The notes under the pieces are model-generated. The model had not been told where the DNA came from. It saw nothing but the letters and a program-made list of their open reading frames with translations, and made no database searches. 36,917 nt of DNA from an uncultured bacterium (lineage in GTDB: Bacteria > Patescibacteriota > Minisyncoccia > Minisyncoccales > CAZLLZ01): positions 1 through 36,917 of the forward strand of contig CBEVQU010000002.1 in NCBI GenBank assembly GCA_965552115.1. The letters run 5' to 3'. The position numbers were made by a program, and so were the translations under genes. Positions 4,872 through 36,917 of the stretch are shown piece by piece (position 1 is the first letter of the stretch; each line of letters begins with the position of its first letter).

Positions 4872-6101
4872 ATGAAAGGAGAAAAGATTTCTCTCTTGAG
4901 CACTTTTTTGAATTTATTTTTAGCTGTTAGTAAATTAACCTTTGGTTTCATTATTAAAAGTATTGCTTTAATGGCAGATGGAGTCCATTCTGGTTTGGAC
5001 GTGATTTCTTCTTTTATCACTTTTTTGGGAATTAAAATTTCTCAAAAGCCAGTCGATGAAACTCATCCTTATGGATACTATAAAGCAGAAAGTATAGCAG
5101 GTTTTTTAGTCACCATTATTTTAGCTATTTCTGGTATTTGGATTTTGTATGAAGCTATTGAGAGAATTTTAGGTGAAAAAATTCCATTTTTTAGTTTGAA
5201 AGCTATTTTATTTGTTATCTTTTCTATTGTTTTAGTAGAAATTTTAGCTAGATTAAAATTTTATTATGGAGAAAAATATCAATCTCTCTCTTTGATAGCT
5301 GACGCTGAACATTCAAGGGCAGATGCTATTTCTTCTGTAGGAGTTTTAATTGGTTTGATAGCGATAAAATATTTTCCTTTAGCTGATGCTTTTATTGCTT
5401 TAGGAATTTCTTTCTTTGTTTTATTTCAAGCTGTCAAAATCGGGAAAGAAATTACAGATTCCTTATTAGATGTGGCTAATAAAGAAGTTGAAGAAAGAAT
5501 CAGAAAAATTTGTCAAGCCCACAATATTGAGATTTCTCAAATCAAAACAAGGAAAATAGGTTCGGCAAATTTTGCTGAAGTAAAAATCAAACTTCCTCTG
5601 AAATTAAAAGTAGAAGAAGTCGATAAAATTACAAAATCTTTAGAAGAAAGAGTTCTTTCAAATATTCCAGAATTAAAATACATAGTTTTTTCTATTGAAC
5701 CTTATCAAGTCAAAAGAAGTGTTATTTTACAAGATTTTGGGAGAAAGATCTGTTCAGTAGAGGGAATAGAAAAAATTGGACCAAAAAAATTAGGGAAAAG
5801 GATAATAATCCCTCTTGAGAATAAAAAAATCGCTAAAACTTTCGGAGCAAAAAATTATCTCATTTTAGATAAGAAAGAAGGAAAAATTTTAAGAAAAGAA
5901 ATAATAAAAAACATTTATTTTAAAAAAACCTCTCCTCATGGAGCTCGTTTTGCTAAAGCTGTCAGAGCAGACAAAGTTTTCACTTATCAAATAGGAAAGA
6001 ATGCTAAAAAGAATTTAGAAAATTTTGGAATAGAAATTGAAATTATTCCTTCAGAGAAAAAAATAAAAGATCTTATTTCTGAAATTGAAAAAGAAAATTA
6101 A
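4872..6101 (+). CDS. Cation diffusion facilitator (FieF-like) with C-terminal NifX-like domain
   Basis: ADGVHSGLD, HPYGYYKAE, ADAEHSRAD, about 6 hydrophobic segments; C-terminal TFGAKNY...QIGKNA resembles the NifX fold. Confidence 0.9.
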   Translation: MKGEKISLLSTFLNLFLAVSKLTFGFIIKSIALMADGVHSGLDVISSFITFLGIKISQKPVDETHPYGYYKAESIAGFLVTIILAISGIWILYEAIERILGEKIPFFSLKAILFVIFSIVLVEILARLKFYYGEKYQSLSLIADAEHSRADAISSVGVLIGLIAIKYFPLADAFIALGISFFVLFQAVKIGKEITDSLLDVANKEVEERIRKICQAHNIEISQIKTRKIGSANFAEVKIKLPLKLKVEEVDKITKSLEERVLSNIPELKYIVFSIEPYQVKRSVILQDFGRKICSVEGIEKIGPKKLGKRIIIPLENKKIAKTFGAKNYLILDKKEGKILRKEIIKNIYFKKTSPHGARFAKAVRADKVFTYQIGKNAKKNLENFGIEIEIIPSEKKIKDLISEIEKEN

Positions 6102-6918
6102 AAAAATAGCTATTACAGGAGGAAAAGGGGGGACAGGAAAGTCTACCTTCTCTATTTTATTTGCTAAAGAACTTTTAAAAAAAGGAAAAAAAGTTGTATT
6201 GGTAGATTGTGATGTGGAATGCCCGAATGACTATTTATTGTTAGGAAAAAAATTTAAAAATTTATCAAAGTTAATTTTTGCTACTTTTCCTAAGTTAGAT
6301 AAAAGAAAATGCAGAAAGTGTGGCCTTTGTTCTAAAGTCTGTAAAGAAAATGCTATCTTTTTTGTTCCTGGAAATTATCCTCTTTTTATCAAGGAGCTTT
6401 GTTCAGGTTGTAAAGCTTGTATAATTTCTTGTCCTTTTTCAGCTATAAAGGAAGAAAAAGAAAAGGTGGGAGAAATTTATTTGAATAAAATAAAAAATAA
6501 TTTTTATCTAATAACAGGGATAACTAAAGTAGGAGTAGAGGAAACAGGTCCTGTTGTCAGAGAGGTTAAAAATTTTGCTCAAAAGTTTGCTAAGAAAATA
6601 AAAGCAGACTTTATTTTATTTGACTCTCCTCCTGGAGTTCATTGTCCGGTAATTTCTACTGTTTTAGGTACAGATTTAGTTTATTTGGTGACAGAACCTA
6701 CTCCAATGGGAGAGCATGATCTAGAGCAGATTTTAATTTTGTGTAAGAAATTAAAATTGAAAACAAAAATTATTTTAAATCAGTCAAATTTAGGAGAAAA
6801 GAAGGGAATTGAAAAAATTTCTAAGAAATATAAAGTGAAAATTGAAAAAGAAATTCCTTATTCTGAAGAAATTGCTAAAGCTTATTCAAAAGGTCGTCTT
6901 CTAGAGATTAATTTTTAA
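6085..6918 (+). CDS. MinD-superfamily P-loop ATPase with inserted 2x[4Fe-4S] ferredoxin
   Basis: GGKGGTGKS, DCDVECPN, CRKCGLCSKVC, CSGCKACIISCP, DSPPGVHCP, TEPTPMG. Confidence 0.9.
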   Translation: MKKKIKKIAITGGKGGTGKSTFSILFAKELLKKGKKVVLVDCDVECPNDYLLLGKKFKNLSKLIFATFPKLDKRKCRKCGLCSKVCKENAIFFVPGNYPLFIKELCSGCKACIISCPFSAIKEEKEKVGEIYLNKIKNNFYLITGITKVGVEETGPVVREVKNFAQKFAKKIKADFILFDSPPGVHCPVISTVLGTDLVYLVTEPTPMGEHDLEQILILCKKLKLKTKIILNQSNLGEKKGIEKISKKYKVKIEKEIPYSEEIAKAYSKGRLLEINF

Positions 6919-6927
6919 AAATAAAAT

Positions 6928-7443
6928 ATGGCACTATTACCTTCGTTAAAAAAAGAAGAAGTTAATGAAATAGCTAAAGAAATTTATAATTTTTTTGAAA
7001 AAAAAACAGGAAAAGTCCCAGAATGGGTGAAAGTAATGGCGCATAGATCTGAAATTTTAAAAGAATTTGTTGAATTATTTAGGGTAATTATGGAAGAAGG
7101 AGAAATTGATCAGTTTTTGAAATGGAAGATAGCTTTGGTAGTTTCGGAAACTTTAAGGTGTCCTTTTTGCGTGGACGTTTCTGTAAAAATGCTAAAAAAA
7201 TTAGGAGCCAAAGACGAAGTAATAGAAAAGATTAAAAAAAGAGAAGGGGAGACAGAAGAAGAAAAAAATGTTTTAGAACTAATAAAAGATGTTACTTTGG
7301 ACGGACACTTAGATAGACCTGAACTTTTTGAAAAATTAAGAGAAAAATTTACTCCTTCTCAGATTGTAGAAATTATTTCAGTAATGGGACTTTTCAACTA
7401 TATTAATAGATTTAACAATACTTTAGCTATTTTACCTGAGTAA
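6928..7443 (+). CDS. Carboxymuconolactone decarboxylase/AhpD-like peroxidase-related protein
   Basis: IALVVS...CPFCVD, FNYINRFN. Confidence 0.8.
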   Translation: MALLPSLKKEEVNEIAKEIYNFFEKKTGKVPEWVKVMAHRSEILKEFVELFRVIMEEGEIDQFLKWKIALVVSETLRCPFCVDVSVKMLKKLGAKDEVIEKIKKREGETEEEKNVLELIKDVTLDGHLDRPELFEKLREKFTPSQIVEIISVMGLFNYINRFNNTLAILPE

Positions 7444-7445
7444 AA

Positions 7446-8027
7446 ATGAGAGAAAGCAAAGAGCTTGAGAAAATTAAAAAAGAAATTCTATCTTGTAAAA
7501 AATGTCCTCTTTATAAAACAAGGAGAAATCCTGTAGCAGGAGAAGGGAATCCTAAAGCTAAAATAATGTTTATTGGAGAGGCTCCAGGAGAAAATGAGGA
7601 TAGAGAAGGTAGACCCTTTTGCGGGAAAGCAGGAAAAATTCTAGATGAATTATTAGAAAAAATAAGCTTAAAAAGAGAAGATGTTTTTATTGGTAATTTA
7701 TTAAAATGTCGACCTCCTCAAAATAGAGATCCTAAATCAGAGGAAATTTTAGCTTGCTCTCCTTTTTTAGAAAAACAGATCGAAATTATAAAGCCAGAGA
7801 TTATTTGTCCTCTGGGTAGATATTCAATGAAATTTATTTTTGAAAAATATGGTTTAAAAGATGAATTAGATTCCATCTCAAAAATTCATGGTAAAGTTTT
7901 TGAAGTAAGAACTCTTTTTCAAAAAGTGAAAATTATCCCTTTTTACCATCCTGCGGTTTGCACTTACAATCCAAGAATGAGAGAAATTTTAGAGCAAGAT
8001 TTTAAGATTTTAGAAAAATTTAAATGA
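7446..8027 (+). CDS. Uracil-DNA glycosylase family 4
   Basis: CKKCPL, GEAPG, GRPFCG, KCRPPQNRDP, YHPA. Confidence 0.95.
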   Translation: MRESKELEKIKKEILSCKKCPLYKTRRNPVAGEGNPKAKIMFIGEAPGENEDREGRPFCGKAGKILDELLEKISLKREDVFIGNLLKCRPPQNRDPKSEEILACSPFLEKQIEIIKPEIICPLGRYSMKFIFEKYGLKDELDSISKIHGKVFEVRTLFQKVKIIPFYHPAVCTYNPRMREILEQDFKILEKFK

Positions 8028-28435: not shown

Positions 28436-29666
28436 AAAAATAAAAGCTAGAGAAATTTTAGATTCAAGAGGGGATCCGACCCTCGAAGTTTTGATATTTA
28501 CAGATAAATTTATCTCTCGAGCTTCAGTTCCTTCTGGAGCTTCAAGAGGGGAAGAAGAAGCTAAAGAATTAAGAGATGGAGGAAAAAGATATTTTGGGAA
28601 AGGAGTGAAGAAAGCAGTAAAAATTGTAGGAGATTTTATTTCCAAAAAACTTAAAGGAATGAAGCTAACCGATCAAGAAAAAATAGACAACATTCTAATA
28701 GAATTAGATGGAACAAAAGATAAAAGAAAATTGGGAGCTAATACTATTTTAGGGGTGAGTATAGCTTCAGCTAAAGGAGGAGCTAAATCATTAAATTTAC
28801 CTTTTTATAAATATATAGCTTTTCTTTATGGAAATAAAAAAAGACTGAAAATTCCAATTTCAGCTTTCAATATAATAAATGGAGGTTTACATGCTGGAAA
28901 TGAATTATCTATCCAAGAGTTTATGATAGTCCCTCAAACAAAATCATTTAAAAAAAATCTTCAAATAGCTTCTGAAATCTACCATTCTTTAAAAGAGATT
29001 TTAATTAAAACTTTTGGCAAAGAAGCAGTTAATTTAGGAGACGAAGGAGGATTTTCTCCTCCTTTAACTAGAACAGAAAGAGGACTAGAATTATTAGAGA
29101 AAGCAACAAAAGAAGCAGGATATAAAAAATGGGTGAAATTTTCCTTAGATTGTGCGGCTTCCCATTTTTGGACAGGGAAAGATTATAATTTAGAAGGAAA
29201 AATTTTTACTTCAGAAGGTCTTATTTCTTTCTATGAAAATTTAATTAAAAGATTTCCTATTTTATCTATCGAAGATCCTTTTTCTGAAAAAGACCTTGAT
29301 GGGTTCGGAAAGTTTACTAAAAAATTTAAGAGAAAGATTATTATTTTTGGGGATGATTTGACTGTTACTTTGGCAGAAAAAATAAAATTAGCTAAAGAGA
29401 AAAAACTTTGTACAGGGGTTATCATTAAACCAAATCAAATAGGAACTTTAACTGAAACGTTCCAGGCTATAAAGATAGCAAGAGAAGGGAAAATGAAGAT
29501 TATGGTTTCTCACAGATCAGGGGAAACAACAGATACTTTTATTTCAGATTTAGCTGTGGGAGTTGGAGCTGAATTTTTGAAAGCTGGCGCTCCAGCTAGA
29601 GGAGAAAGAGTAGTAAAATACAATAGATTATTAGAAATTGAAGAAGAAATTTATGGAAAAGGATAA
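28416..29666 (+). CDS. eno: Enolase
   Basis: REILDSRG, VPSGAS, NGGLHA, GDEGGF, GDDL, KPNQIG, SHRSGET, KYNRLL. Confidence 0.97.
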   Translation: MKGNKIKKIKAREILDSRGDPTLEVLIFTDKFISRASVPSGASRGEEEAKELRDGGKRYFGKGVKKAVKIVGDFISKKLKGMKLTDQEKIDNILIELDGTKDKRKLGANTILGVSIASAKGGAKSLNLPFYKYIAFLYGNKKRLKIPISAFNIINGGLHAGNELSIQEFMIVPQTKSFKKNLQIASEIYHSLKEILIKTFGKEAVNLGDEGGFSPPLTRTERGLELLEKATKEAGYKKWVKFSLDCAASHFWTGKDYNLEGKIFTSEGLISFYENLIKRFPILSIEDPFSEKDLDGFGKFTKKFKRKIIIFGDDLTVTLAEKIKLAKEKKLCTGVIIKPNQIGTLTETFQAIKIAREGKMKIMVSHRSGETTDTFISDLAVGVGAEFLKAGAPARGERVVKYNRLLEIEEEIYGKG

Positions 29667-30675
29667 AATTGAAAAAATTTTTAAAGAAATTAAAGAAAAA
29701 GTAGATAAAAAAATTATTGAGATTTTAGATTTAAAAGTAGACAAGAAAATAAGGAAAATTTTAAATTATCAGATTCAAACAGGTGGAAAAAGAATAAGAC
29801 CTATTTTGTGTATTTTGTCTTGTAAAGCAGTTGGAGGAAGAGAAAAAGATGCTCTTTTTGCTTCAGCTGGCATTGAAATCTTACATAATTTTTCTTTAAT
29901 TATAGATGATATTATAGACCATAGTATTTTAAGAAGAAATAAAGAAACACTTTGGGCAAAATATGGAAAATCGATTGCTCAATGTTTAGCAATGAGCTAT
30001 TCAGCAGCTGTCTTTCAATCTGCTTCTTTGACCAAAAAACCAAAAGAGATATCTCTTTTATTTGCTGAAGCTATAAAAAAAATAGTTGAAGGAGAAATTT
30101 TAGATATTTTATTTGAGCAAAAGGGAAGGGAAGATGAGAGATATATCATTGAAAACAGATTTTCTGAAGTTTCTCTCAGAGACTATTTAGAAATGGTATC
30201 TAAAAAGACAGCTTTTTTATTCAAAATCACTTGCAAAGTAGGAGCTATTTTAGGAGAAGGTTTGGAAAAAGAAATAAAAGCTTTAGAAGAATTCGGATTT
30301 AATTTAGGAATAGCTTTCCAAATTAAAGATGACATTTTAGATATTTTTGGAAAAGAGGAAATTTTTGGGAAAGAAATAGGGAAAGATATAAAAGAAAGAA
30401 AAATGGGAAATATTGTTCTACTTTTGTCTTTTAAAGAATTAAAGGAAAAAGAAAGAAAATCTATTAAAAGGATTTTAAAAAAAGATAAAATTTTAAAAAA
30501 AGATATCAAAGAGGCAATTGATTTAATAAAGAAAACAAAAGCTTTGGAAAAGGCAGAGAAATTAGGAGAAAAATATGTGAAAGAAGCAATGAAAAGACTG
30601 TCTCTTTTAGAGAAAAACAAATCAGTGAAATTACTAAGAGAAATAGCAGATTTTCTACAAAAAAGAGAAAAATAA
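29653..30675 (+). CDS. Polyprenyl (GGPP-type) diphosphate synthase
   Basis: GGKRIRP, IIDDIID..RR, KKTA, AFQIKDDILD, GKDI. Confidence 0.92.
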   Translation: MEKDKIEKIFKEIKEKVDKKIIEILDLKVDKKIRKILNYQIQTGGKRIRPILCILSCKAVGGREKDALFASAGIEILHNFSLIIDDIIDHSILRRNKETLWAKYGKSIAQCLAMSYSAAVFQSASLTKKPKEISLLFAEAIKKIVEGEILDILFEQKGREDERYIIENRFSEVSLRDYLEMVSKKTAFLFKITCKVGAILGEGLEKEIKALEEFGFNLGIAFQIKDDILDIFGKEEIFGKEIGKDIKERKMGNIVLLLSFKELKEKERKSIKRILKKDKILKKDIKEAIDLIKKTKALEKAEKLGEKYVKEAMKRLSLLEKNKSVKLLREIADFLQKREK

Positions 30676-30934: not shown

Positions 30935-31891
30935 ATGGAGATAATTTTCAACAAAATTTTTCTTTTACATCAAACTGGAGATCATCCAGAAAGCAAAAAA
31001 AGACTTGAAGTTTTTAAGGATTTAAAAGAAAGAGAAATAGAAAATGGAGAGAAATTCTTAATTTTAGTTCATACAAAAGAATATATAAAATTTATAAAAA
31101 GTCTTTCTTTAAAAGAAAAATCTTTAGACCTAGACACTCCTTTAAGTAAAGAAAGCTATAAAGTAGCTTGTTTTGCAGTAGGAGCTTCTATTTTGGCTTC
31201 AAAAGAAAATAATTTTGCTCTAATAAGACCCCCTGGCCATCATGCAGGTTCTAACTTTGGAGGAGGTTTTTGTTTATTTAATAACATTGCTATAGCTTCA
31301 AAGAGAATAGTTAAGGAAGGAAAGAGAGTTTTTATTTTAGATTTTGATGGGCATTTTGGTGATGGTACTTCTCAAATATTTTATAACTCAAAAAATGTGT
31401 TATATTGTTCTATCCATCAATATCCAGCTTATCCGGGGAAGGGAAAAATAAAAGAGGTAGGTGAAGGAGAAGGCGAGGGATTTAATATCAATTTTCCTTT
31501 ACCACCTCAATCAGGAGACGATATTTTTTTAAAAGCAGCAAAAATACTAATTTCAATTGGAAGACAATTTTCACCAGATGTTGTTGGAGTGTCAGCAGGT
31601 TTCGATGGACACAAATTAGATCCTTTATTGAATTTAAATTTTTCAGCAACTTCTTTTTATAAAATTGGGAAAATGCTTTCTGAAAATTTTTCTAAAATAT
31701 TTGCAGTTTTAGAAGGAGGGTATAATTTAGAATATTTGCCAAAATGCGTTTTTAATTTTATAGCAGGTATAAACAAAGAAGAACTTCCTTTCAAAGAAAA
31801 AGAAACAAAAACTCCCAAAATAATTAAAAATGAATTTGACTTAAGAAAAAGAGAATTCCAAAAAATCATTTCCAAATACTGGAAAATGTGA
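30935..31891 (+). CDS. Histone deacetylase/AcuC-family Zn deacetylase
   Basis: HPES..RL, RPPGHHA, GGFCLFNN, DFDGHFGDG, SAGFD, LEGGY. Confidence 0.93.
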   Translation: MEIIFNKIFLLHQTGDHPESKKRLEVFKDLKEREIENGEKFLILVHTKEYIKFIKSLSLKEKSLDLDTPLSKESYKVACFAVGASILASKENNFALIRPPGHHAGSNFGGGFCLFNNIAIASKRIVKEGKRVFILDFDGHFGDGTSQIFYNSKNVLYCSIHQYPAYPGKGKIKEVGEGEGEGFNINFPLPPQSGDDIFLKAAKILISIGRQFSPDVVGVSAGFDGHKLDPLLNLNFSATSFYKIGKMLSENFSKIFAVLEGGYNLEYLPKCVFNFIAGINKEELPFKEKETKTPKIIKNEFDLRKREFQKIISKYWKM

Positions 31892-31909
31892 ATTTTAAAT
31901 TTAAAAAAC

Positions 31910-32599
31910 ATGAGATATCCAGAGATTGACTTCAAAATAAAAAAGGAGACAGATTTTTATTTATATAAAATCTTTTCAAAAGAAAATCGAAGAATTTTGG
32001 ATGCATGTTTTTATAATTTATATAGTGATCTATCTTGTCTTAAAAAAAAGAACCTTTCTTCAAAGGAAAAAATAAAAGTTATAAAAAATTTTATTGAGGA
32101 ATATTATAAGAAACATCAAAGAGAGATTGAAGAAAACCTAATGGAAATAGAAAAAGATTGGAATGGAATAAAAAATGATTTTTTTAGATTAGTTGATAAA
32201 ATTTTCAAAAATCACCCTTGGCCTAAAGGAAAATATATAGCTTATGTAACTATTTGGGGAATTTATCCACGTGATATAAAAGAAAAGATATTTTTCATAC
32301 CTTATAAAGATAAAAAATTAGCTTTAGAAGTTATCGCCCACGAAATGCTTCATTTTATCTTTTATGATTATCTTTATAGCCATTATCCGAAATATAAAAA
32401 GAAAAAATATCAAAAGAGGATTTGGAAAATCTCAGAATCTTTTAATGTGATTATACAAAATCAAAGAGAGTGGGTAGCTCTTTTTCACAAAAGACCTGAG
32501 GTTTATCCAGAACTTAAAAAATTAATTCAAAAAATTAGAAAGATTTGGAGAGAAAAAAAAGACATAGATTATTTATTAAAAAAGATTCTACCTAGATAA
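31910..32599 (+). CDS. Hypothetical HEXXH zincin-like metalloprotease
   Basis: VIAHEMLHF with a downstream Glu (WKISES). Confidence 0.6.
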   Translation: MRYPEIDFKIKKETDFYLYKIFSKENRRILDACFYNLYSDLSCLKKKNLSSKEKIKVIKNFIEEYYKKHQREIEENLMEIEKDWNGIKNDFFRLVDKIFKNHPWPKGKYIAYVTIWGIYPRDIKEKIFFIPYKDKKLALEVIAHEMLHFIFYDYLYSHYPKYKKKKYQKRIWKISESFNVIIQNQREWVALFHKRPEVYPELKKLIQKIRKIWREKKDIDYLLKKILPR

Positions 32600-32614
32600 T
32601 GATAGCTGTTTTGT

Positions 32615-33238
32615 TTAAATTTCTTTCTTTACTATGCATTCAATTACTGTATGGAAATGAGGACTTCCGTGAGAAGTGTCTCTAAAACGTCTTTCTTCAA
32701 AAGAAATAATTTCCAATCCTTTTAATAAATCTTTTACTTCTTTTTTTGGAAAAAAATGTCTAAATATCTGTTTTCTTGGAAGAAAAAAAGTATTTCTCTC
32801 TACTTCTTTGAAATTTTCTTTGAACCGCTTAAAAAAAGGATCTCTTATTGAGAAAACAGATAGATAGAAGATACCTTTATTTTTTAAAGCTTTTTTAATT
32901 TTTTTTATTATCTTTTCTACTTCCTTTCTCTTTAAAAAATCTAAAACTGAAATAGCAATAATCAGTGAATAGGTTTTTGGAGAAAATTTGAATTTCCTCA
33001 CATCTATTAGTTTAGCTTTAATATTTAGTCGTTGTTTTTCAGAAATTTTTTTAATAAATTCTATATTTTCTGGTGAGATATCTATCGCTGTTACTTCAAA
33101 CCCATTTTTAGCAAGAAAAAAACTATTTCTTCCATTTCCTGCTCCAATATCAAGAGCTTTTCCTTTAGAAGAATATTTTATAATTTTTTTTAATCTTTTT
33201 ACGGGTTTTGTATAAAGATTCACATAGGGAAAATTCAT
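32615..33238 (-). CDS. Class I SAM-dependent methyltransferase (TehB-like)
   Basis: ALDIGAGNGRNSFFLAKNGFEVTAID; C-terminal HGSPHFH. Confidence 0.85.
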   Translation of the reverse strand: MNFPYVNLYTKPVKRLKKIIKYSSKGKALDIGAGNGRNSFFLAKNGFEVTAIDISPENIEFIKKISEKQRLNIKAKLIDVRKFKFSPKTYSLIIAISVLDFLKRKEVEKIIKKIKKALKNKGIFYLSVFSIRDPFFKRFKENFKEVERNTFFLPRKQIFRHFFPKKEVKDLLKGLEIISFEERRFRDTSHGSPHFHTVIECIVKKEI

Positions 33239-33249
33239 ATCTAACTTGT

Positions 33250-33293
33250 TTGACTGTTTTCCTCTCTACATTATATAATAAAAATAAAGGTGA
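33250..33293 (+). promoter_or_regulatory. Promoter and RBS of the Cys-rich peptide gene
   Basis: TTGACT 33250-33255, TATAAT 33274-33279, AAGGTGA 33287-33293 ahead of ATG 33298. Confidence 0.7.
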
Positions 33294-33297
33294 TGAA

Positions 33298-33456
33298 ATG
33301 AAAGATGAAGAGAGGAAGATTCTAGAAAGATATGCATTTTGGAACCTGAGTAAATGGCAAAAGGAATTTTGTGAAAGTTGTCGAGGGTGTGGTGCGCCAT
33401 CTTGTGGATGTGAAACAGGATGTAGTTGTTCTCCTGGATGTGGAGGTCCTGCTTAA
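33298..33456 (+). CDS. 52-aa Cys-rich peptide (RiPP precursor or metallothionein-like)
   Basis: MKDEERKILERYAFWNLSKWQKEF-CESCRGCGAPSCGCETGCSCSPGCGGPA: charged leader-like half plus 8 Cys in a Gly/Ser/Pro core; has its own promoter, RBS and terminator. Confidence 0.8.
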   Translation: MKDEERKILERYAFWNLSKWQKEFCESCRGCGAPSCGCETGCSCSPGCGGPA

Positions 33457-33492
33457 CTCTTGTTCTTTTTCTAAAAATCTGTTTTCAAAAGC

Positions 33493-33527
33493 AAATAGCA
33501 TACTCTCAGGGTATGCTATTTATTTTT
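33493..33527 (+). terminator. Intrinsic terminator after the Cys-rich peptide gene
   Basis: aaatagcatac/gtatgctattt stem followed by a T-rich tract. Confidence 0.75.
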
Positions 33528-33562
33528 CTCTTTACTAGAATATGTAAATTTTTAATATTTTC

Positions 33563-33641
33563 GGCTTGACAGATAAATTTGGAATAAAGCATAAAAAAAT
33601 AAGTTGCTGTTTAAAATAAAATATGGAGGTGAAAAAAATGG
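33563..33641 (+). repeat. Duplicated promoter-leader-RBS cassette, copy 1
   Basis: ggcttgacagataaatttggaataaagcataaaaaaataagttgctgtttaaaataaaatatggaggtgaaaaaaatgg, near-identical to 35472-35551. Confidence 0.92.
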
Positions 33642-34339
33642 GCGGAAAAAACCATCAGCCGTGTAGGAAATATATTCGAGAGTCTATTATGCTTTCCAAA
33701 GCGACTTCTGATATTTTAGCGAAGCTTGAGATAGCGAATTCTCTTTTGGAAGATGTTTTACTTGCAGAGCTTAATGGAGAAAATAAGAGCCGATATATGA
33801 AGGACATTCTTAAATATTTGATTGAAAGTAAAAATAAAACAGAAGAAGCTCTCAAATATATTAATTGTATTCTAGTAAAAATGGACAAATTAAAGTTCCA
33901 AGATAGCGAGATGCTAAATGAAATATTAGCTCTTAAAGATGCTTTTATTGAGCTAGAAATTATTCCTCGAAGAGAATTTTCAGCTTGGGAAATAACGGCG
34001 AGTATACTTGAAAAAGAAGGATTTAAAGGAATTTTTATTTATTTCCATAAACTTTTAGAGAAGATAAAAGAAAATCTACAAGAATTAATTGAACTTTTTG
34101 TAAAAGGACAAGAGTATACTGAAAAAGGGAACCTATTAGAAGCTATTGAGACGAACGAATTACCAATAAGGCAAAGCTTTGTAAAGGTATATTTAGCTTA
34201 TTTAGATTTTTCAGCAATTTTCACTTGTTCTAGCATAATTTCAACTGAAGTTTATTTAAGAACCAATGGCTATCCTTCACTCCTTTCGGATTTAAATTTC
34301 CCAAGGAAGAGAGATGCGGTTATACTTTCGGAAGTTTAA
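33638..34339 (+). CDS. Hypothetical all-alpha protein (233 aa)
   Basis: GGAGGTG RBS places the start at ATG 33638 (MGGKNHQPC...); amphipathic helices; no family recognised. Confidence 0.7.
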   Translation: MGGKNHQPCRKYIRESIMLSKATSDILAKLEIANSLLEDVLLAELNGENKSRYMKDILKYLIESKNKTEEALKYINCILVKMDKLKFQDSEMLNEILALKDAFIELEIIPRREFSAWEITASILEKEGFKGIFIYFHKLLEKIKENLQELIELFVKGQEYTEKGNLLEAIETNELPIRQSFVKVYLAYLDFSAIFTCSSIISTEVYLRTNGYPSLLSDLNFPRKRDAVILSEV

Positions 34340-34368
34340 GAAATTTCCGATGTTTTATATCTTAAATG

Positions 34369-34398
34369 AATCCGAATCTTTAATGATTCGGATTTTTT
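34369..34398 (+). terminator. Intrinsic terminator
   Basis: aatccgaatc-tttaat-gattcggatt followed by a T tract. Confidence 0.75.
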
Positions 34399-34411
34399 AT
34401 TTTTAAAAGAT

Positions 34412-35416
34412 ATGATAGAATTTAATTACAATAAAAGAATTCTTATGGATAACAAAGCTAAGAAAATAAAAATTTCTTTTTCGTTGGACAAAAGAATTTT
34501 TTGTCTTTATTGTGCTTTGGTTTCATGTAATATTCATGAGAAATTCAAAAAAAATTTATCAAAGAGTAATTTTTATAAAGAGCTACAGAGTCATTTTCAG
34601 CACCTCAAACTTAGTAGCAGAAAAAAACTAGAGCATTTTTTTAATCGGAATCATTATTTCCAATATCTTTGTTGGGTCCTTCGTCATTCTGATTTTCCTG
34701 AATTTAAGCTAAGAACAAGAAATAAAGATTCTCTTCAAAAGCCAGATAGTTGGTTTGATGGTTTTGATGAAGTTTTGAGAAGGTTTTATAAAGAAGCGGA
34801 AATAAAAAAACTTTGGGAAAGATCAAAACCAAAGTATCAAAAAATAATTTTTCTTTATCAAGAAGAAACGGAAAAGAAGATTTTAGAAGTAATCAGACGT
34901 GTAAGAGAAAAAAAAATAAAATTGTATTTTAACGAAATAGTATTAATCCCCAATCTTTTAGAGGCAATAGGGGTAGGTTTTGCTCCGATGATTCCTCCAA
35001 GAGCTTATATAATTTTCGGCCCTTCTACTAAAAAAGTTAATACTTCCTTAATTATTCATGAGTTTTTACATCATTTGATTAATCCTTTGCTTGAAGAAAA
35101 AGAGATAAAAAAGAAACTCATAATTTTTAGAAAAAAGTATTTTTCTTTTACAACTCCTTTATCAAGAAAATTCTATCCTAAATGGAGTTGGATTGCCTCA
35201 GAATATTTTGTTCGAGCTTTTCAAGCAACTCTCATTCAAAATAAAATCGAAAGAGAAAAATTTCTTAAAATGGAAGAAAAGCAAGGTTTTCCTAAAATCA
35301 AATGGTTTTTTTACTGCTTTCAAAAATTTAAACATAGAGATTCCATGAGAAAACAAATAATCGAAATTCTTGATGAGTTATCCAAAAGTAAAAATTTAGG
35401 ATTAACAGAGGATTAG
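34412..35416 (+). CDS. HEXXH metallopeptidase-like protein (DUF4932-like)
   Basis: IIHEFLHHLINP...YPKW..IASEYFVRA...EEKQGF; the true start may be ATG 34445. Confidence 0.7.
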   Translation: MIEFNYNKRILMDNKAKKIKISFSLDKRIFCLYCALVSCNIHEKFKKNLSKSNFYKELQSHFQHLKLSSRKKLEHFFNRNHYFQYLCWVLRHSDFPEFKLRTRNKDSLQKPDSWFDGFDEVLRRFYKEAEIKKLWERSKPKYQKIIFLYQEETEKKILEVIRRVREKKIKLYFNEIVLIPNLLEAIGVGFAPMIPPRAYIIFGPSTKKVNTSLIIHEFLHHLINPLLEEKEIKKKLIIFRKKYFSFTTPLSRKFYPKWSWIASEYFVRAFQATLIQNKIEREKFLKMEEKQGFPKIKWFFYCFQKFKHRDSMRKQIIEILDELSKSKNLGLTED

Positions 35417-35471
35417 CTTTTTAGAATATATCAAAGATTTTTTAACAGAAGAAAAATGTTTTTAAAATTTT

Positions 35472-35551
35472 GGCTTGACAGATAAATTTGGAATAAAGTA
35501 TAAAAAAAAATAAATTGCTGTTTAAAATAAAATATGGAGGTGAAAAAATGG
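35472..35551 (+). repeat. Duplicated promoter-leader-RBS cassette, copy 2
   Basis: Differs from copy 1 by two substitutions and two A-run lengths. Confidence 0.92.
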
Positions 35552-35661
35552 AAGATAAAAAAGAATTTGTTAAGAAAGTTCTTTCTGATATTAAGAAAGA
35601 AGAGAAAGATATGAAACCAGATGATTGGAGAGGTCTTCTTCATAATTGGATAAAATGCTAA
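35548..35661 (+). CDS. 37-aa peptide not in the ORF track (candidate RiPP precursor)
   Basis: MEDKKEFVKKVLSDIKKEEKDMKPDDWRGLLHNWIKC*; preceded by GGAGGTG and TTGACA, immediately followed by a terminator. Confidence 0.75.
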   Translation: MEDKKEFVKKVLSDIKKEEKDMKPDDWRGLLHNWIKC

Positions 35662-35663
35662 AT

Positions 35664-35693
35664 TGGGCTAAGCTAATTTTTAGCCCATTTTTT
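35664..35693 (+). terminator. Intrinsic terminator after the 37-aa peptide gene
   Basis: tgggctaa/ttagccca stem followed by T6. Confidence 0.75.
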
Positions 35694-35730
35694 ATATTGT
35701 ATTTTTTTTAGAAACTGATAAAATTTGATT

Positions 35731-36609
35731 ATGAACTGGAAACTAAAAAAAATTATTACCAAAGATGGGATTAATCTAGAAGGGATATTTTTTCTTCCTC
35801 CGAGTCATAAGAATAAAGGAATACTTTTTATTCACGGTTTCACAGGAAATTTTTATAGTAATATTGAAATACTCAATGCTTTGGCAGAGAGACTTGGAAA
35901 ATTTGGGTTTGGTGTTGCATCTTTTAATACGCGGGGTCATGATATTATTAGTTGGATTCGCTGCGAAGGAAAAAAAGAAAAGAAGCTATTAATTCTAGGT
36001 GGAGCTTTTGAAAAATTTGAAGATTGTATTTTAGATATAGAAGCTGGCTTGAAGTTTTTACATTCTCAAGGTTTTAATGATCTTATATTAATAGGAATAA
36101 GTACTGGGGCAGACAAAGTAGCTTATTATTTATCTAAACCTCATAGTAAGTTAATTAGAGGCGCAGTTTTTCTATCACCCGCTGACAATATTTTAATTGG
36201 CCGAAAAGAGTTAGGGAAAAAGCTTGATACGATCTTAAAGAAAACAAAAAGAATGATAAAAATAGGCAAAAAGAATGAGCTTATTTTAGATCCATTACTT
36301 GAATTTCCTATTTCTTATCATCGTTTTTTTAGCTTGTACCAAGAAGGAAGCAATGAAAATGTCTTTGTTTTTCATAGTCGGGTAAAAAAGTCCAAGGTTT
36401 TATCAAGGATTAAAGAACCTATTTTTTTAATATTAGGAGAGAAAGATAGATATTTATATAATTATTCTCCTCAGTTTGTAATAAGAATCATTAAAAGAAA
36501 TATTTATTCGAGTTTTAAATCAGCGGTAATAAAAGACGCAGGCCATAACTTCAAAGGTAAAGAAAAAAAATTAGCCAATTTGATTGCTAATTGGATTAAG
36601 AAACTATAA
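35731..36609 (+). CDS. Alpha/beta hydrolase (DUF1749-like serine hydrolase)
   Basis: FIHGFTGNFY, RGHD, nucleophile GISTG, GEKD, AGHNF. Confidence 0.85.
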   Translation: MNWKLKKIITKDGINLEGIFFLPPSHKNKGILFIHGFTGNFYSNIEILNALAERLGKFGFGVASFNTRGHDIISWIRCEGKKEKKLLILGGAFEKFEDCILDIEAGLKFLHSQGFNDLILIGISTGADKVAYYLSKPHSKLIRGAVFLSPADNILIGRKELGKKLDTILKKTKRMIKIGKKNELILDPLLEFPISYHRFFSLYQEGSNENVFVFHSRVKKSKVLSRIKEPIFLILGEKDRYLYNYSPQFVIRIIKRNIYSSFKSAVIKDAGHNFKGKEKKLANLIANWIKKL

Positions 36610-36758
36610 CTTAATTATTATTTTTTAGTTAGTCCCTGATGTTTTTTTCAGTCTTTTTACTGGAATTTTAAGATATTTTGTTCTAATAACAGCTGGAAAC
36701 TAGCTTCATTTTTGACATTATTTAAGGAGTGTAATATATAAAAGAGAGGTGATGTAAG

Positions 36759-36917
36759 GTGTCTAATCAAATAAGTGCATTAAAAAGTAAATATGGAAAT
36801 GAGAAGATAAAGGAATACTGGTTTTCCATTCAGCTTAAACCGGTAGGAAGTGCGTGTAATATCGCAAGAGGATGGCGATCGAGGAGAGTTACCGGGGCCT
36901 CAAAGCTCTTTTGGGCC
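36759..36917 (+). CDS. N-terminus of anSME/SPASM-like radical SAM protein, partial and interrupted
   Basis: GAGGTGA RBS, GTG start, MSNQISALKSKYGNEKIKEYWFSIQLKPVGSACNI; KPxGxxCN is the anSME-type lead-in to CxxxCxxC, but the 2nd and 3rd Cys are absent. Confidence 0.65.
   Translation, partial: MSNQISALKSKYGNEKIKEYWFSIQLKPVGSACNIARGWRSRRVTGASKLFWA

Follow-up and report, generated by a model that had tools for sequence, protein, structure and literature searches.

Which of the small-peptide genes at the end of this stretch of DNA belong together with its radical S-adenosylmethionine (rSAM) enzyme, and what kind of product would they make? The window analysed here is a stretch of 36,917 nucleotides from an uncultured bacterium of the Patescibacteriota, and its last part, from 31.9 to 36.9 kb, holds two small peptide genes (pep1 and pep2), a helical protein of 233 amino acids (aa), two genes with HEXXH motifs, a methyltransferase, a serine alpha/beta hydrolase and the start of an rSAM gene. 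An earlier note had taken this island for a precursor, maturase and protease system for a peptide that is ribosomally synthesised and then modified after translation (a RiPP), and all of the genes that it listed are indeed present at their places, as seen from open reading frames (ORFs), domain matches and signals. In our reading, to which we give a probability of about three in four, the core of the island is smaller, namely a minimal two-gene RiPP cassette in which pep2 is the precursor and its partner is an rSAM/SPASM enzyme of the anaerobic sulfatase-maturating (anSME) type that lacks a RiPP recognition element (RRE). The pairing of a precursor with a maturase proposed earlier is retained, while a conserved protease and a pathway spanning the whole island are not. 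The features at issue are the following.

35548-35661, + strand: pep2, candidate precursor of 37 aa with a helical leader and the C-terminal core DWRGLLHNWIKC, behind a GGAGGTGA ribosome-binding site
36759-36862, + strand: 5' end of the rSAM/SPASM maturase gene, with GTG start and KPVGSACN motif, continuing on contig C23 as positions 81-1101
36863-36917, no strand: assembly chimera at the contig end, outside the rSAM gene, recognised by overlap with C23 and with contigs of the read runs

The maturase gene had been described as cut at the end of the window, and its remainder was found on C23, another contig of the same genome. This genome comprises 586,994 bases in 35 contigs (the window being contig C2), with about 30% GC content and an estimated completeness of 97.8%, and its size and composition match the Candidate Phyla Radiation (CPR)/Patescibacteria, so that the earlier label 'CPR-like' suits it. 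Window positions 36783-36862 are the same as C23 positions 1-80 with one mismatch, and the two sequences diverge after that. Past 36862 the C23 sequence continues in a 2667-base contig from a DNA run, which confirms the join of C2 to C23, and in a contig from an RNA-library run. The last 55 bases of the window match a 120-base foreign piece at 115x depth, and because they are chimeric the translated tail 'ARGWRS...' is an artefact. The full gene encodes about 374 aa, in which Radical_SAM and SPASM domains are both detected. Its CxxxCxxC motif begins about 33 residues from the enzyme start, the match to TIGR03974 begins at model position 104, and with the motif so near the start the enzyme has no RRE; of the two domains that the earlier note had proposed to look for in the complete gene, SPASM is there and RRE is not.

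The evidence for the pair comes from related loci. It was found that all eight other loci with a 51-69% identical enzyme (8/8) encode a pep2-like peptide just downstream, which bears out the expectation that a Trp-containing short ORF would occur together with the rSAM gene. In seven of seven loci from scans of sequence collections (genome locus L013 and metagenome loci L014-L019, where L013 and L014, and L018 and L019, are near-duplicates), the pep2 homologue overlaps the stop codon of the enzyme gene or starts within about 25 bases, usually behind GGAGG, and genome G171, with a 51% identical enzyme, has two tandem pep2-like copies. The co-inherited peptides are 28-44 aa long, hold a single Cys and no C/S-x-P/A-x-R motif, and have in common a ..[KR]EFV.AVL.. 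type leader and a 12-residue core, [DE]W.[GA]....W[IT]KC, followed by the stop codon; in five of eight listed peptides a Pro stands in front of the core. A short precursor with conserved leader and core is therefore genetically coupled to a modifying enzyme, as is generally expected of RiPPs.

The same pairing is seen in a sample of 401 genomes of the phylum, which also serves for the HEXXH229 and p233 family counts given below. A degenerate DNA pattern of core plus stop codon gave three sites in 2 of the 401 genomes, the source genome (G000) and G171, with no control hits, and these are the only two genomes of the sample with a close enzyme (E<=1e-100). At E<=1e-40 the enzyme is matched in 10 of the 401, G171 (4e-122) being the only close one. 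Among 40 relatives, nearly all of the same order, 38 gave no enzyme match at E<=1e-20 and the remaining two are 27-30% identical, and scans of sequence collections gave one genome locus (L013, 69%), the six metagenome loci (all 53-69%) and two further matches, both distant. Of the 12 core codons, 7 are changed in L013 relative to the window, and every one of these changes is synonymous; there are six synonymous and no non-synonymous changes in L016, and seven and one in L015, which shows purifying selection on the pep2 core. Because of co-inheritance, codon selection and the reciprocal pattern test, pep2 and the enzyme carry the signature of a precursor and maturase pair. By comparison of loci, it is pep2 that emerges as the partner of the enzyme and not the Cys-rich pep1. 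Neither Pfam nor NCBIfam has a model for pep2 or pep1, and among 5.8 billion proteins pep2 gave only two near-identical entries, from which rarity is not inferable as short ORFs are seldom called.

The enzyme aligns end to end with anSMEcpe, its best solved relative (PDB 4K36-4K39; E 3.6e-49, residues 15-353 on 5-354), and is like it in length, architecture, CxxxCxxC motif, eight auxiliary cysteines and lack of an RRE. All 11 cluster cysteines, three of the rSAM cluster (C25, C29, C32) and eight of the auxiliary clusters (C253, C259, C274, C315, C318, C324, C328, C347), are invariant in seven orthologues and match cysteines of anSMEcpe. None of the curated NCBIfam cut-offs is reached. The best family match is the anSME model TIGR03942 (264.1 bits against a cut-off of 349.45, E 1.9e-78), and two other anSME models score 193 against 441 and 188 against 484; DynA NF041298 is the third-best NCBIfam match, after two anSME models (191 against 450). 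Lower scores were obtained with PapB NF047865 (157 against 340, E 5.5e-46), GrrM (157 against 310), TIGR04083 (156 against 300), AmcB (138 against 425), YhhB (137 against 445), DarE NF038005 (123 against 650), XyeB (70 against 450) and WgkB (63 against 650). The earlier statement that the layout is unlike SCIFF, mycofactocin and PqqA agrees with this, as no curated precursor or maturase family was matched. The source genome has two SPASM enzymes in all. The second, on contig C1 at 5876-7315 (L001), is a NirJ2/AhbD-like protein of 479 aa (300 bits against a cut-off of 500) with an N-terminal extension of about 120 aa, and no peptide gene was noticed beside it.

Known systems with related enzymes suggest what the product might be. 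The pair is like DarE and DynA in its RRE-less anSME-like rSAM/SPASM enzyme and in a short C-terminal core with Trp and Lys, and unlike them in that the enzyme scores far below their cut-offs and the core has two Trp residues 7 residues apart and a C-terminal Cys; the reference cores are of the type W-N-W-S-K-S-F for darobactin and W-N-S-N-V-H-S-Y-R-F for dynobactin. Unlike darobactin, there is no DarBCD-type transporter here, and the cassette occurs in a CPR bacterium instead of a proteobacterium. DarE, too, is closest to anSME and makes a Trp-Lys C-C ring at W-S-K spacing, which is the spacing of W-[IT]-K in pep2 (PMC10288494). The triceptide enzymes (XyeB, GrrM/OscB, FxsB, YhhB, AmcB) are likewise related rSAM/SPASM proteins (E 1e-46 to 1e-20), W-[IT]-K fits their aromatic-X-X motif, and the peptides beside CPR paralogues of the enzyme are rich in aromatic-X-Asp/Asn. 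Triceptide precursors usually repeat the motif, whereas each pep2-type peptide has one, and the enzyme stays below all of the triceptide cut-offs.

A likeness to ranthipeptide/SCIFF enzymes (PapB, CteB, TIGR03974) and to QhpD is seen in the PapB-family match and in the invariant Cys and Asp/Glu of the pep2 core, which are the donor (Cys) and acceptor (Asp/Glu) types of the PapB and QhpD thioethers; pep1 is Cys-rich, as SCIFF is. In contrast to the SCIFF/CteB type, the enzyme has no N-terminal RRE of about 90 aa and its co-inherited peptide has one Cys, and pep1 is not a Cys-rich precursor both adjacent to the enzyme and co-inherited with it. With streptide StrB/SuiB and tryglysin WgkB the pair has in common a Lys-Trp pair in a short C-terminal core and an rSAM/SPASM enzyme. 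They differ in having an RRE and in coming from quorum-sensing operons; the window enzyme has no RRE and a WgkB score of 63 against 650. Both families are named in the abstract of PMC11851443. The chemistry would accordingly be of a class like that of darobactin, triceptides or ranthipeptides, and the cassette probably a member of none of them, extending a known class.

As to mechanism, pep2 would consist of an amphipathic leader of about 20 residues (..EFV..VL..) and the 12-residue core, and the enzyme may recognise the leader directly, with no RRE, as in anSME-like maturases. A 5'-deoxyadenosyl radical would then abstract hydrogen in the core, leading to one or two intramolecular cross-links. 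The favoured cross-link is a C-C cyclophane between the Trp and Lys of W-[IT]-K, like ring B of darobactin and the triceptides, and it is favoured because CPR paralogues of about 30% identity adjoin Cys-free peptides with cores rich in aromatic-X-Asp/Asn. As an alternative or in addition, a thioether might join the invariant C-terminal Cys to the invariant Asp/Glu. The type of cross-link is purely our inference, in which the Trp-Lys bond is the leading candidate at somewhat less than even odds, a thioether, alone or additional, is a clearly less probable outcome, and something else again is slightly less so. The class I methyltransferase may add a methyl group to the product, and one may speculate that the S33-like hydrolase might cut off the leader behind the Pro in front of the core.

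The short ORFs beside the paralogous rSAM genes of about 30% identity (L041/L062 at about 5988-6119, L040/L063 at 1867-1989, L036 at 1580-1711 and L039 at 873-1046, all on the - strand) have pep2-like leaders and cores that are free of Cys, very acidic and rich in aromatic-X-Asp/Asn, and they look like a sister precursor family of pep2.

Several points weigh against the two-gene cassette. No modification has been observed, and the family that gives the enzyme its highest score is true anSME. The gene order of the window is different: pep2 stands upstream, separated from the enzyme gene by a terminator and the hydrolase and with a duplicated strong promoter in front, whereas it is immediately downstream in 8/8 of the other loci, and the related loci are few (six distinct sequences and the window). 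No conserved protease or exporter goes with the pair, which leaves release and export of the product unexplained; the absence of a visible transporter, remarked on earlier, extends to C23. Contigs from RNA libraries cover pep2, the hydrolase and the rSAM start, and they are no proof of expression because such libraries may hold DNA. No RNA-library contig covers 31971-33167 or most of pep1, and this missing cover is likewise not evidence.

If the reading of pep2 and the enzyme as a cassette holds, it offers a testable precursor-enzyme pair with a short invariant core from Patescibacteria, and its enzyme is of the RRE-less, anSME-like kind to which darobactin and dynobactin owe their maturation. 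A peptide system kept in a strongly reduced genome suggests a role toward a host or competitor. Current understanding is not overturned by it. No description of the core motif was found in the searchable literature, where motif strings gave only unrelated papers, and none of an rSAM RiPP characterised in CPR bacteria, the supplements of the compendia lying outside the search, so that an earlier listing there is possible. According to PMC10288494, two large rSAM-RiPP compendia were selected by the presence of an RRE or an ABC transporter in the neighbourhood, and the cassette would probably escape both because neither adjoins it.

How, then, do the other genes of the island relate to the pair? 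They are the following.

31910-32599, + strand: HEXXH229, 229 aa, HEMLH...E176, with no Pfam or NCBIfam match
32615-33238, - strand: class I SAM methyltransferase, TehB-like, 207 aa (PF03848, 80.8 bits)
33298-33456, + strand: pep1, 52 aa, with an RYAFWN segment and 8 Cys in the C-terminal half (ORF and homologue alignment)
33638-34339, + strand: p233, helical protein of 233 aa, N-terminus MGGKNHQPC, with no Pfam match
34412-35416, + strand: DUF4932 protein, HEFLHH, 334 aa (PF16286, 39.5 bits against a cut-off of 28.7)
35731-36609, + strand: serine alpha/beta hydrolase, 292 aa, G-I-S-T-G motif (DUF1749, Abhydrolase_1, S33-type Hydrolase_4)

In tblastn searches with pep1, p233, the DUF4932 protein, the hydrolase, HEXXH229 and a 352-aa protein encoded on C23, nothing credible was found in L013-L019, which were searched with 1-8 kb of flanking sequence at E<=0.01, and L032/L065 likewise gave nothing (L032 searched at E<=0.001). 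Since homologues of p233, of the DUF4932 protein and of the hydrolase are missing from the related loci, and since the p233 family also occurs in genomes without any SPASM hit, the region from 31.9 to 36.9 kb is more plausibly a composite than a single pathway.

The first of its other parts would be HEXXH229 with pep1. An alignment of 15 HEXXH229 members has H144, E145, H148, E176 and W213 invariant, and the gluzincin pattern of HExxH with a Glu 28 residues on is present in 15/15, so that a gluzincin-like peptidase of an unnamed CPR family is predicted; no Pfam or PDB family could be assigned. The family occurs in 19 of the 401 genomes. Of 20 HEXXH229 loci, the window counted, 9 have an rSAM/SPASM gene at a distance of no more than 5 kb (WIN, L045/L064, L043/L062, L055/L063, L047/L068, L050/L069, L054/L066, L058/L067 and L061/L070); the other 11 had none, five of them (L071-L075) seen with 1.3-8 kb flanks, the homologue in L071 being 1.3 kb from a contig end, and six with only 1.5 kb. 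All four genomes that hold both HEXXH229 and an anSME-like rSAM gene (G000, G179, G227, G284) have them on the same contig and at most 5 kb apart, where by our estimate a random locus would lie within 5 kb of a SPASM gene in a few percent of cases (2 genes in 587 kb). At L066-L070 the neighbouring rSAM enzymes bear an RRE, are 409-473 aa long and 23-28% identical to the window enzyme, and each has a Cys-rich short ORF beside it; two are PapB/SCIFF-like, one StsB/AhbD-like and one FibroRumin-like (375 bits against a cut-off of 400). An unnamed zinc-peptidase-like family appears in this way to mark rSAM peptide clusters across the phylum.

By analogy with these loci, HEXXH229 and pep1 may form a second, ranthipeptide-like module without its own RRE-type maturase. 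This reading of pep1 rests on analogy, and the fact that no pep1 homologue was seen beside any rSAM gene counts against it. Among 5.8 billion proteins pep1 has only two homologues (96% and 67% identity), in which RYAFWN and 7 Cys are invariant, and its single match in L013-L019 (E=0.006) falls inside a longer ORF of L013/L014, with none in L032; it lies 0.7 kb beyond HEXXH229 and 3.3 kb upstream of the enzyme. Pep1 might instead be an unmodified, metallothionein-like metal-binding peptide that is nearby by chance, a possibility that we take seriously while holding it to be the less probable one. With 8 Cys spread over 28 residues in CxxC, CGC and GCSC spacing it would suit metal binding, it stands as a monocistronic gene between a promoter and a terminator of its own, and it is not found at the eight related rSAM loci; against this, its conserved N-terminal RYAFWN resembles a recognition leader, and HEXXH229 genes adjoin Cys-rich ORFs and rSAM genes in the five other CPR loci (L066-L070). 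Pep1 is best described as either a candidate ranthipeptide-like precursor or a metal-binding peptide.

Several differing small HExxH proteins, up to five in L062, are also found around the paralogous anSME-like rSAM genes, and a family of 314-340 aa is common to L062 (G284:C17, 900-7200), L064 (G179:C12, 800-6300) and L063 (G227:C25, 1-3300). It looks as if small HExxH proteins recur around rSAM genes as a kind of 'zincin zoo'. In G179 there is in addition a deacetylase-like gene about 30% identical to the window gene at 30935-31891, which adjoins HEXXH229.

The second part would be p233 and the DUF4932 protein, which we read as a separate conserved pair. The p233 family has 175 representative clusters (E<=0.001), nearly all of 220-250 aa and matched end to end, with G2, N5, H6, E38 and N173 invariant, so that a conserved family of about 230 aa (MGGKNHQPC...) has come to light. 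It has no Pfam, PDB or atlas feature match, its structural neighbours in the atlas are generic helical proteins (TM-score <= 0.61), and a search of plasmid and phage collections with the homologue of L025 gave no match. It is present in 4 of the 401 genomes and in 0 of 100 relatives of the same order. In L030 the p233 homologue has a DUF4932 homologue (28% identity over 240 aa, E 2e-25) directly behind it, and in L029 the p233 homologue is near an alpha/beta hydrolase. A comparison by hhalign of the DUF4932 protein with a 320-aa HExxH family beside paralogous rSAM genes gave a probability of 5%, and one with HEXXH229 gave 21%, limited to the HExxH...SE.F stretch; neither is significant. In L025, an IMG/VR provirus of high GC content (6001-8027), the p233 homologue is followed after 16 bases by a 366-aa rSAM gene and then by a 71-aa Cys-rich ORF; this rSAM protein is distant (24% identity) and has a CxxC...C..GGC tail.

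An obligate partnership of p233 with an rSAM enzyme was rejected, as G472, G482 and G447 have no SPASM hit and an rSAM gene stands in one of three informative contexts (L025), and no Cys-rich ORF is consistently near p233 homologues; the co-occurrence of 233-aa homologues with rSAM genes that had been expected was therefore not borne out. An extracytoplasmic function (ECF)-type sigma factor gene lies upstream in L025 on the other strand. Near the p233 homologue of L029 (G472:C11), at 352-885 on the - strand, a 177-aa protein has a Cys/Gly-rich tail that resembles the C-terminus of pep1, and a related 170-aa protein near p233 in L030 has no such tail.

It is unlikely, on this evidence, that the whole of 31.9-36.9 kb together with C23 is one pathway in which the rSAM enzyme matures pep1 and pep2, leader removal falls to HEXXH proteins and/or the hydrolase, and p233 has an accessory or immunity role. 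Such a pathway could draw on the small number of SPASM enzymes in the genome, two in all with the second one NirJ/AhbD-like, on HEXXH229 lying within 5 kb of an anSME-like rSAM gene in 4/4 sampled genomes with both, on the promoter and ribosome-binding site duplicated before p233 and pep2, on the gene order of L025, and on a PapB score (157 bits) close to those of PapB-like enzymes beside Cys-rich peptides (151 in L066, 142 in L067). What speaks against it is that pep1, p233, the DUF4932 protein, the hydrolase and HEXXH229 lack credible homologues in L013-L019 and L032/L065, that p233 homologues occur in G472 and G482, both without a SPASM hit, and that Cys-rich peptides elsewhere adjoin RRE-bearing rSAM enzymes of 409-473 aa, not this type. 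An 876-base RNA-library contig, a single low-depth record, also seems to be without HEXXH229, methyltransferase and pep1, with the p233 promoter retained.

More ambitious, and improbable, is the idea that in an ultra-small episymbiont one RRE-less anSME-type enzyme matures both pep2 and the Cys-rich pep1, that pep2 becomes a darobactin-like Trp-Lys (plus Cys) 12-mer used on the host, and that HEXXH229 is the CPR leader peptidase for rSAM RiPPs generally. More doubtful still is that pep2 gives rise to a small peptide-derived redox cofactor, by the logic of pyrroloquinoline quinone (PQQ), mycofactocin or the tryptophylquinones (CTQ/TTQ), and not to a secreted product. The invariant Trp, Trp, Lys, Cys and Asp/Glu are the residue types of protein-derived quinone cofactors, modification at the extreme C-terminus would be as in MftA, and the pair is accompanied by no conserved exporter or dedicated protease. 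On the other side, no PqqB/C/D or MftB/D/E/F-type genes are among the ORFs listed at the related loci (no family search was made), PqqE and MftC are not among the 25 best of 77 model scores of the enzyme, and no candidate cofactor-dependent dehydrogenase is linked. That the enzyme is an ordinary sulfatase-maturating one and the small ORFs irrelevant, as its best family match (TIGR03942, E 1.9e-78) and best solved relative (anSMEcpe) might suggest, can practically be dismissed, since it scores 264 below a cut-off of 349, the sulfatase domain PF00884 has 0 matches in the 97.8% complete genome (the control was positive in 10 of 14 reference genomes; a sulfatase beside the gene had been named earlier as a refuting sign), and a peptide of 28-44 aa is strictly co-inherited with it.

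Preferring, then, the two-gene cassette, the methyltransferase is the only other recurrent neighbour of the pair, with weak homologues of 27-31% identity. It lies directly downstream in L013/L014, L015 and L016; L018/L019 have it on the opposite strand, where it seems to be split. L017 and L032 have none, and in the window it is 2.3 kb upstream of pep2 on the other strand. A tailoring role is possible. The hydrolase, with no homologue in L013-L019 or L032 at the thresholds given above, is by this comparison lineage-specific and not conserved with the pair.

The island also holds the following signals.

33250-33279, + strand: promoter-like site of pep1, TTGACT-18-TATAAT, matching at 11/12 positions, the best site in 32500-36917
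33493-33521, + strand: intrinsic terminator after pep1, a 13-pair stem and then a T run
33549-33641, + strand: copy 1 of a 93-base direct repeat, with TTGACA promoter, 5' leader, GGAGGTGA ribosome-binding site and ATG, preceding the 233-aa gene
34368-34395, + strand: terminator after p233
35459-35551, + strand: copy 2 of the 93-base repeat, the promoter and ribosome-binding site of pep2
35664-35687, + strand: terminator after pep2

Each of the two peptide genes had been credited with a promoter, ribosome-binding site and terminator of its own; the signals are there, but the promoter of pep2 is not independent, being shared as a repeat with the 233-aa gene. The two copies are identical in 88 of 95 aligned columns, there is no third copy elsewhere in the genome, and at the repeat the assembly graphs break and the depth roughly doubles. 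The position of p233 and the DUF4932 gene between the copies suggests insertion or promoter capture by recombination. The terminator after pep2 could attenuate read-through into the hydrolase and rSAM genes. Terminator-like sites are more frequent than expected by chance (5 against 1.3), while promoter-like sites as a class are not enriched (18 against 18.9), so that only individual near-consensus sites count. The leader of the repeat is not a known RNA, since an Rfam search gave only two matches, far below the gathering score (E 0.26 and 0.6).

In the 876-base RNA-library contig the upstream deacetylase gene ends and the p233 promoter follows almost at once (window positions 31887-33564), and a second run shows a loose end at 31887. 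This single low-depth record suggests a strain variant in which HEXXH229, the methyltransferase and pep1 are missing.

Among the related loci, L013 comes from a metagenome-assembled genome named 'Candidatus Saccharibacteria', and Pacebacteria, Gribaldobacteria and Berkelbacteria are source names for homologues of a neighbouring gene. At the 53% locus L018/L019 (1084-2011 and 3345-4310), two short ORFs just upstream of the rSAM gene are like transposase/integrase fragments by eye, and just after the peptide, on the opposite strand, lies an S66 LD-carboxypeptidase, which we take to be of the MccF family, with a look-alike ORF further on in L018. This context hints at mobility of the cassette.

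The gene right after the rSAM gene on C23 (L009, 1209-2267, + strand) encodes the 352-aa protein, of which 108 homologues were found in CPR-labelled sources, five of them carrying PF19086 (terpene synthase family 2, C-terminal). The protein itself has what we take to be DDxxE-like and N..T...E-like motifs. It would belong to a terpene-synthase-like family in CPR genomes and is not conserved with the pair; a polyprenyl synthetase (PF00348) is encoded at 29638-30675 of the window, 6 kb upstream. The sequence records of the 67% pep1 homologue (P0002) and of a 47% homologue of the 352-aa protein (P0161) both give 3 contigs, the longest of 30,337 bases, and the two may lie on one contig of a related organism.

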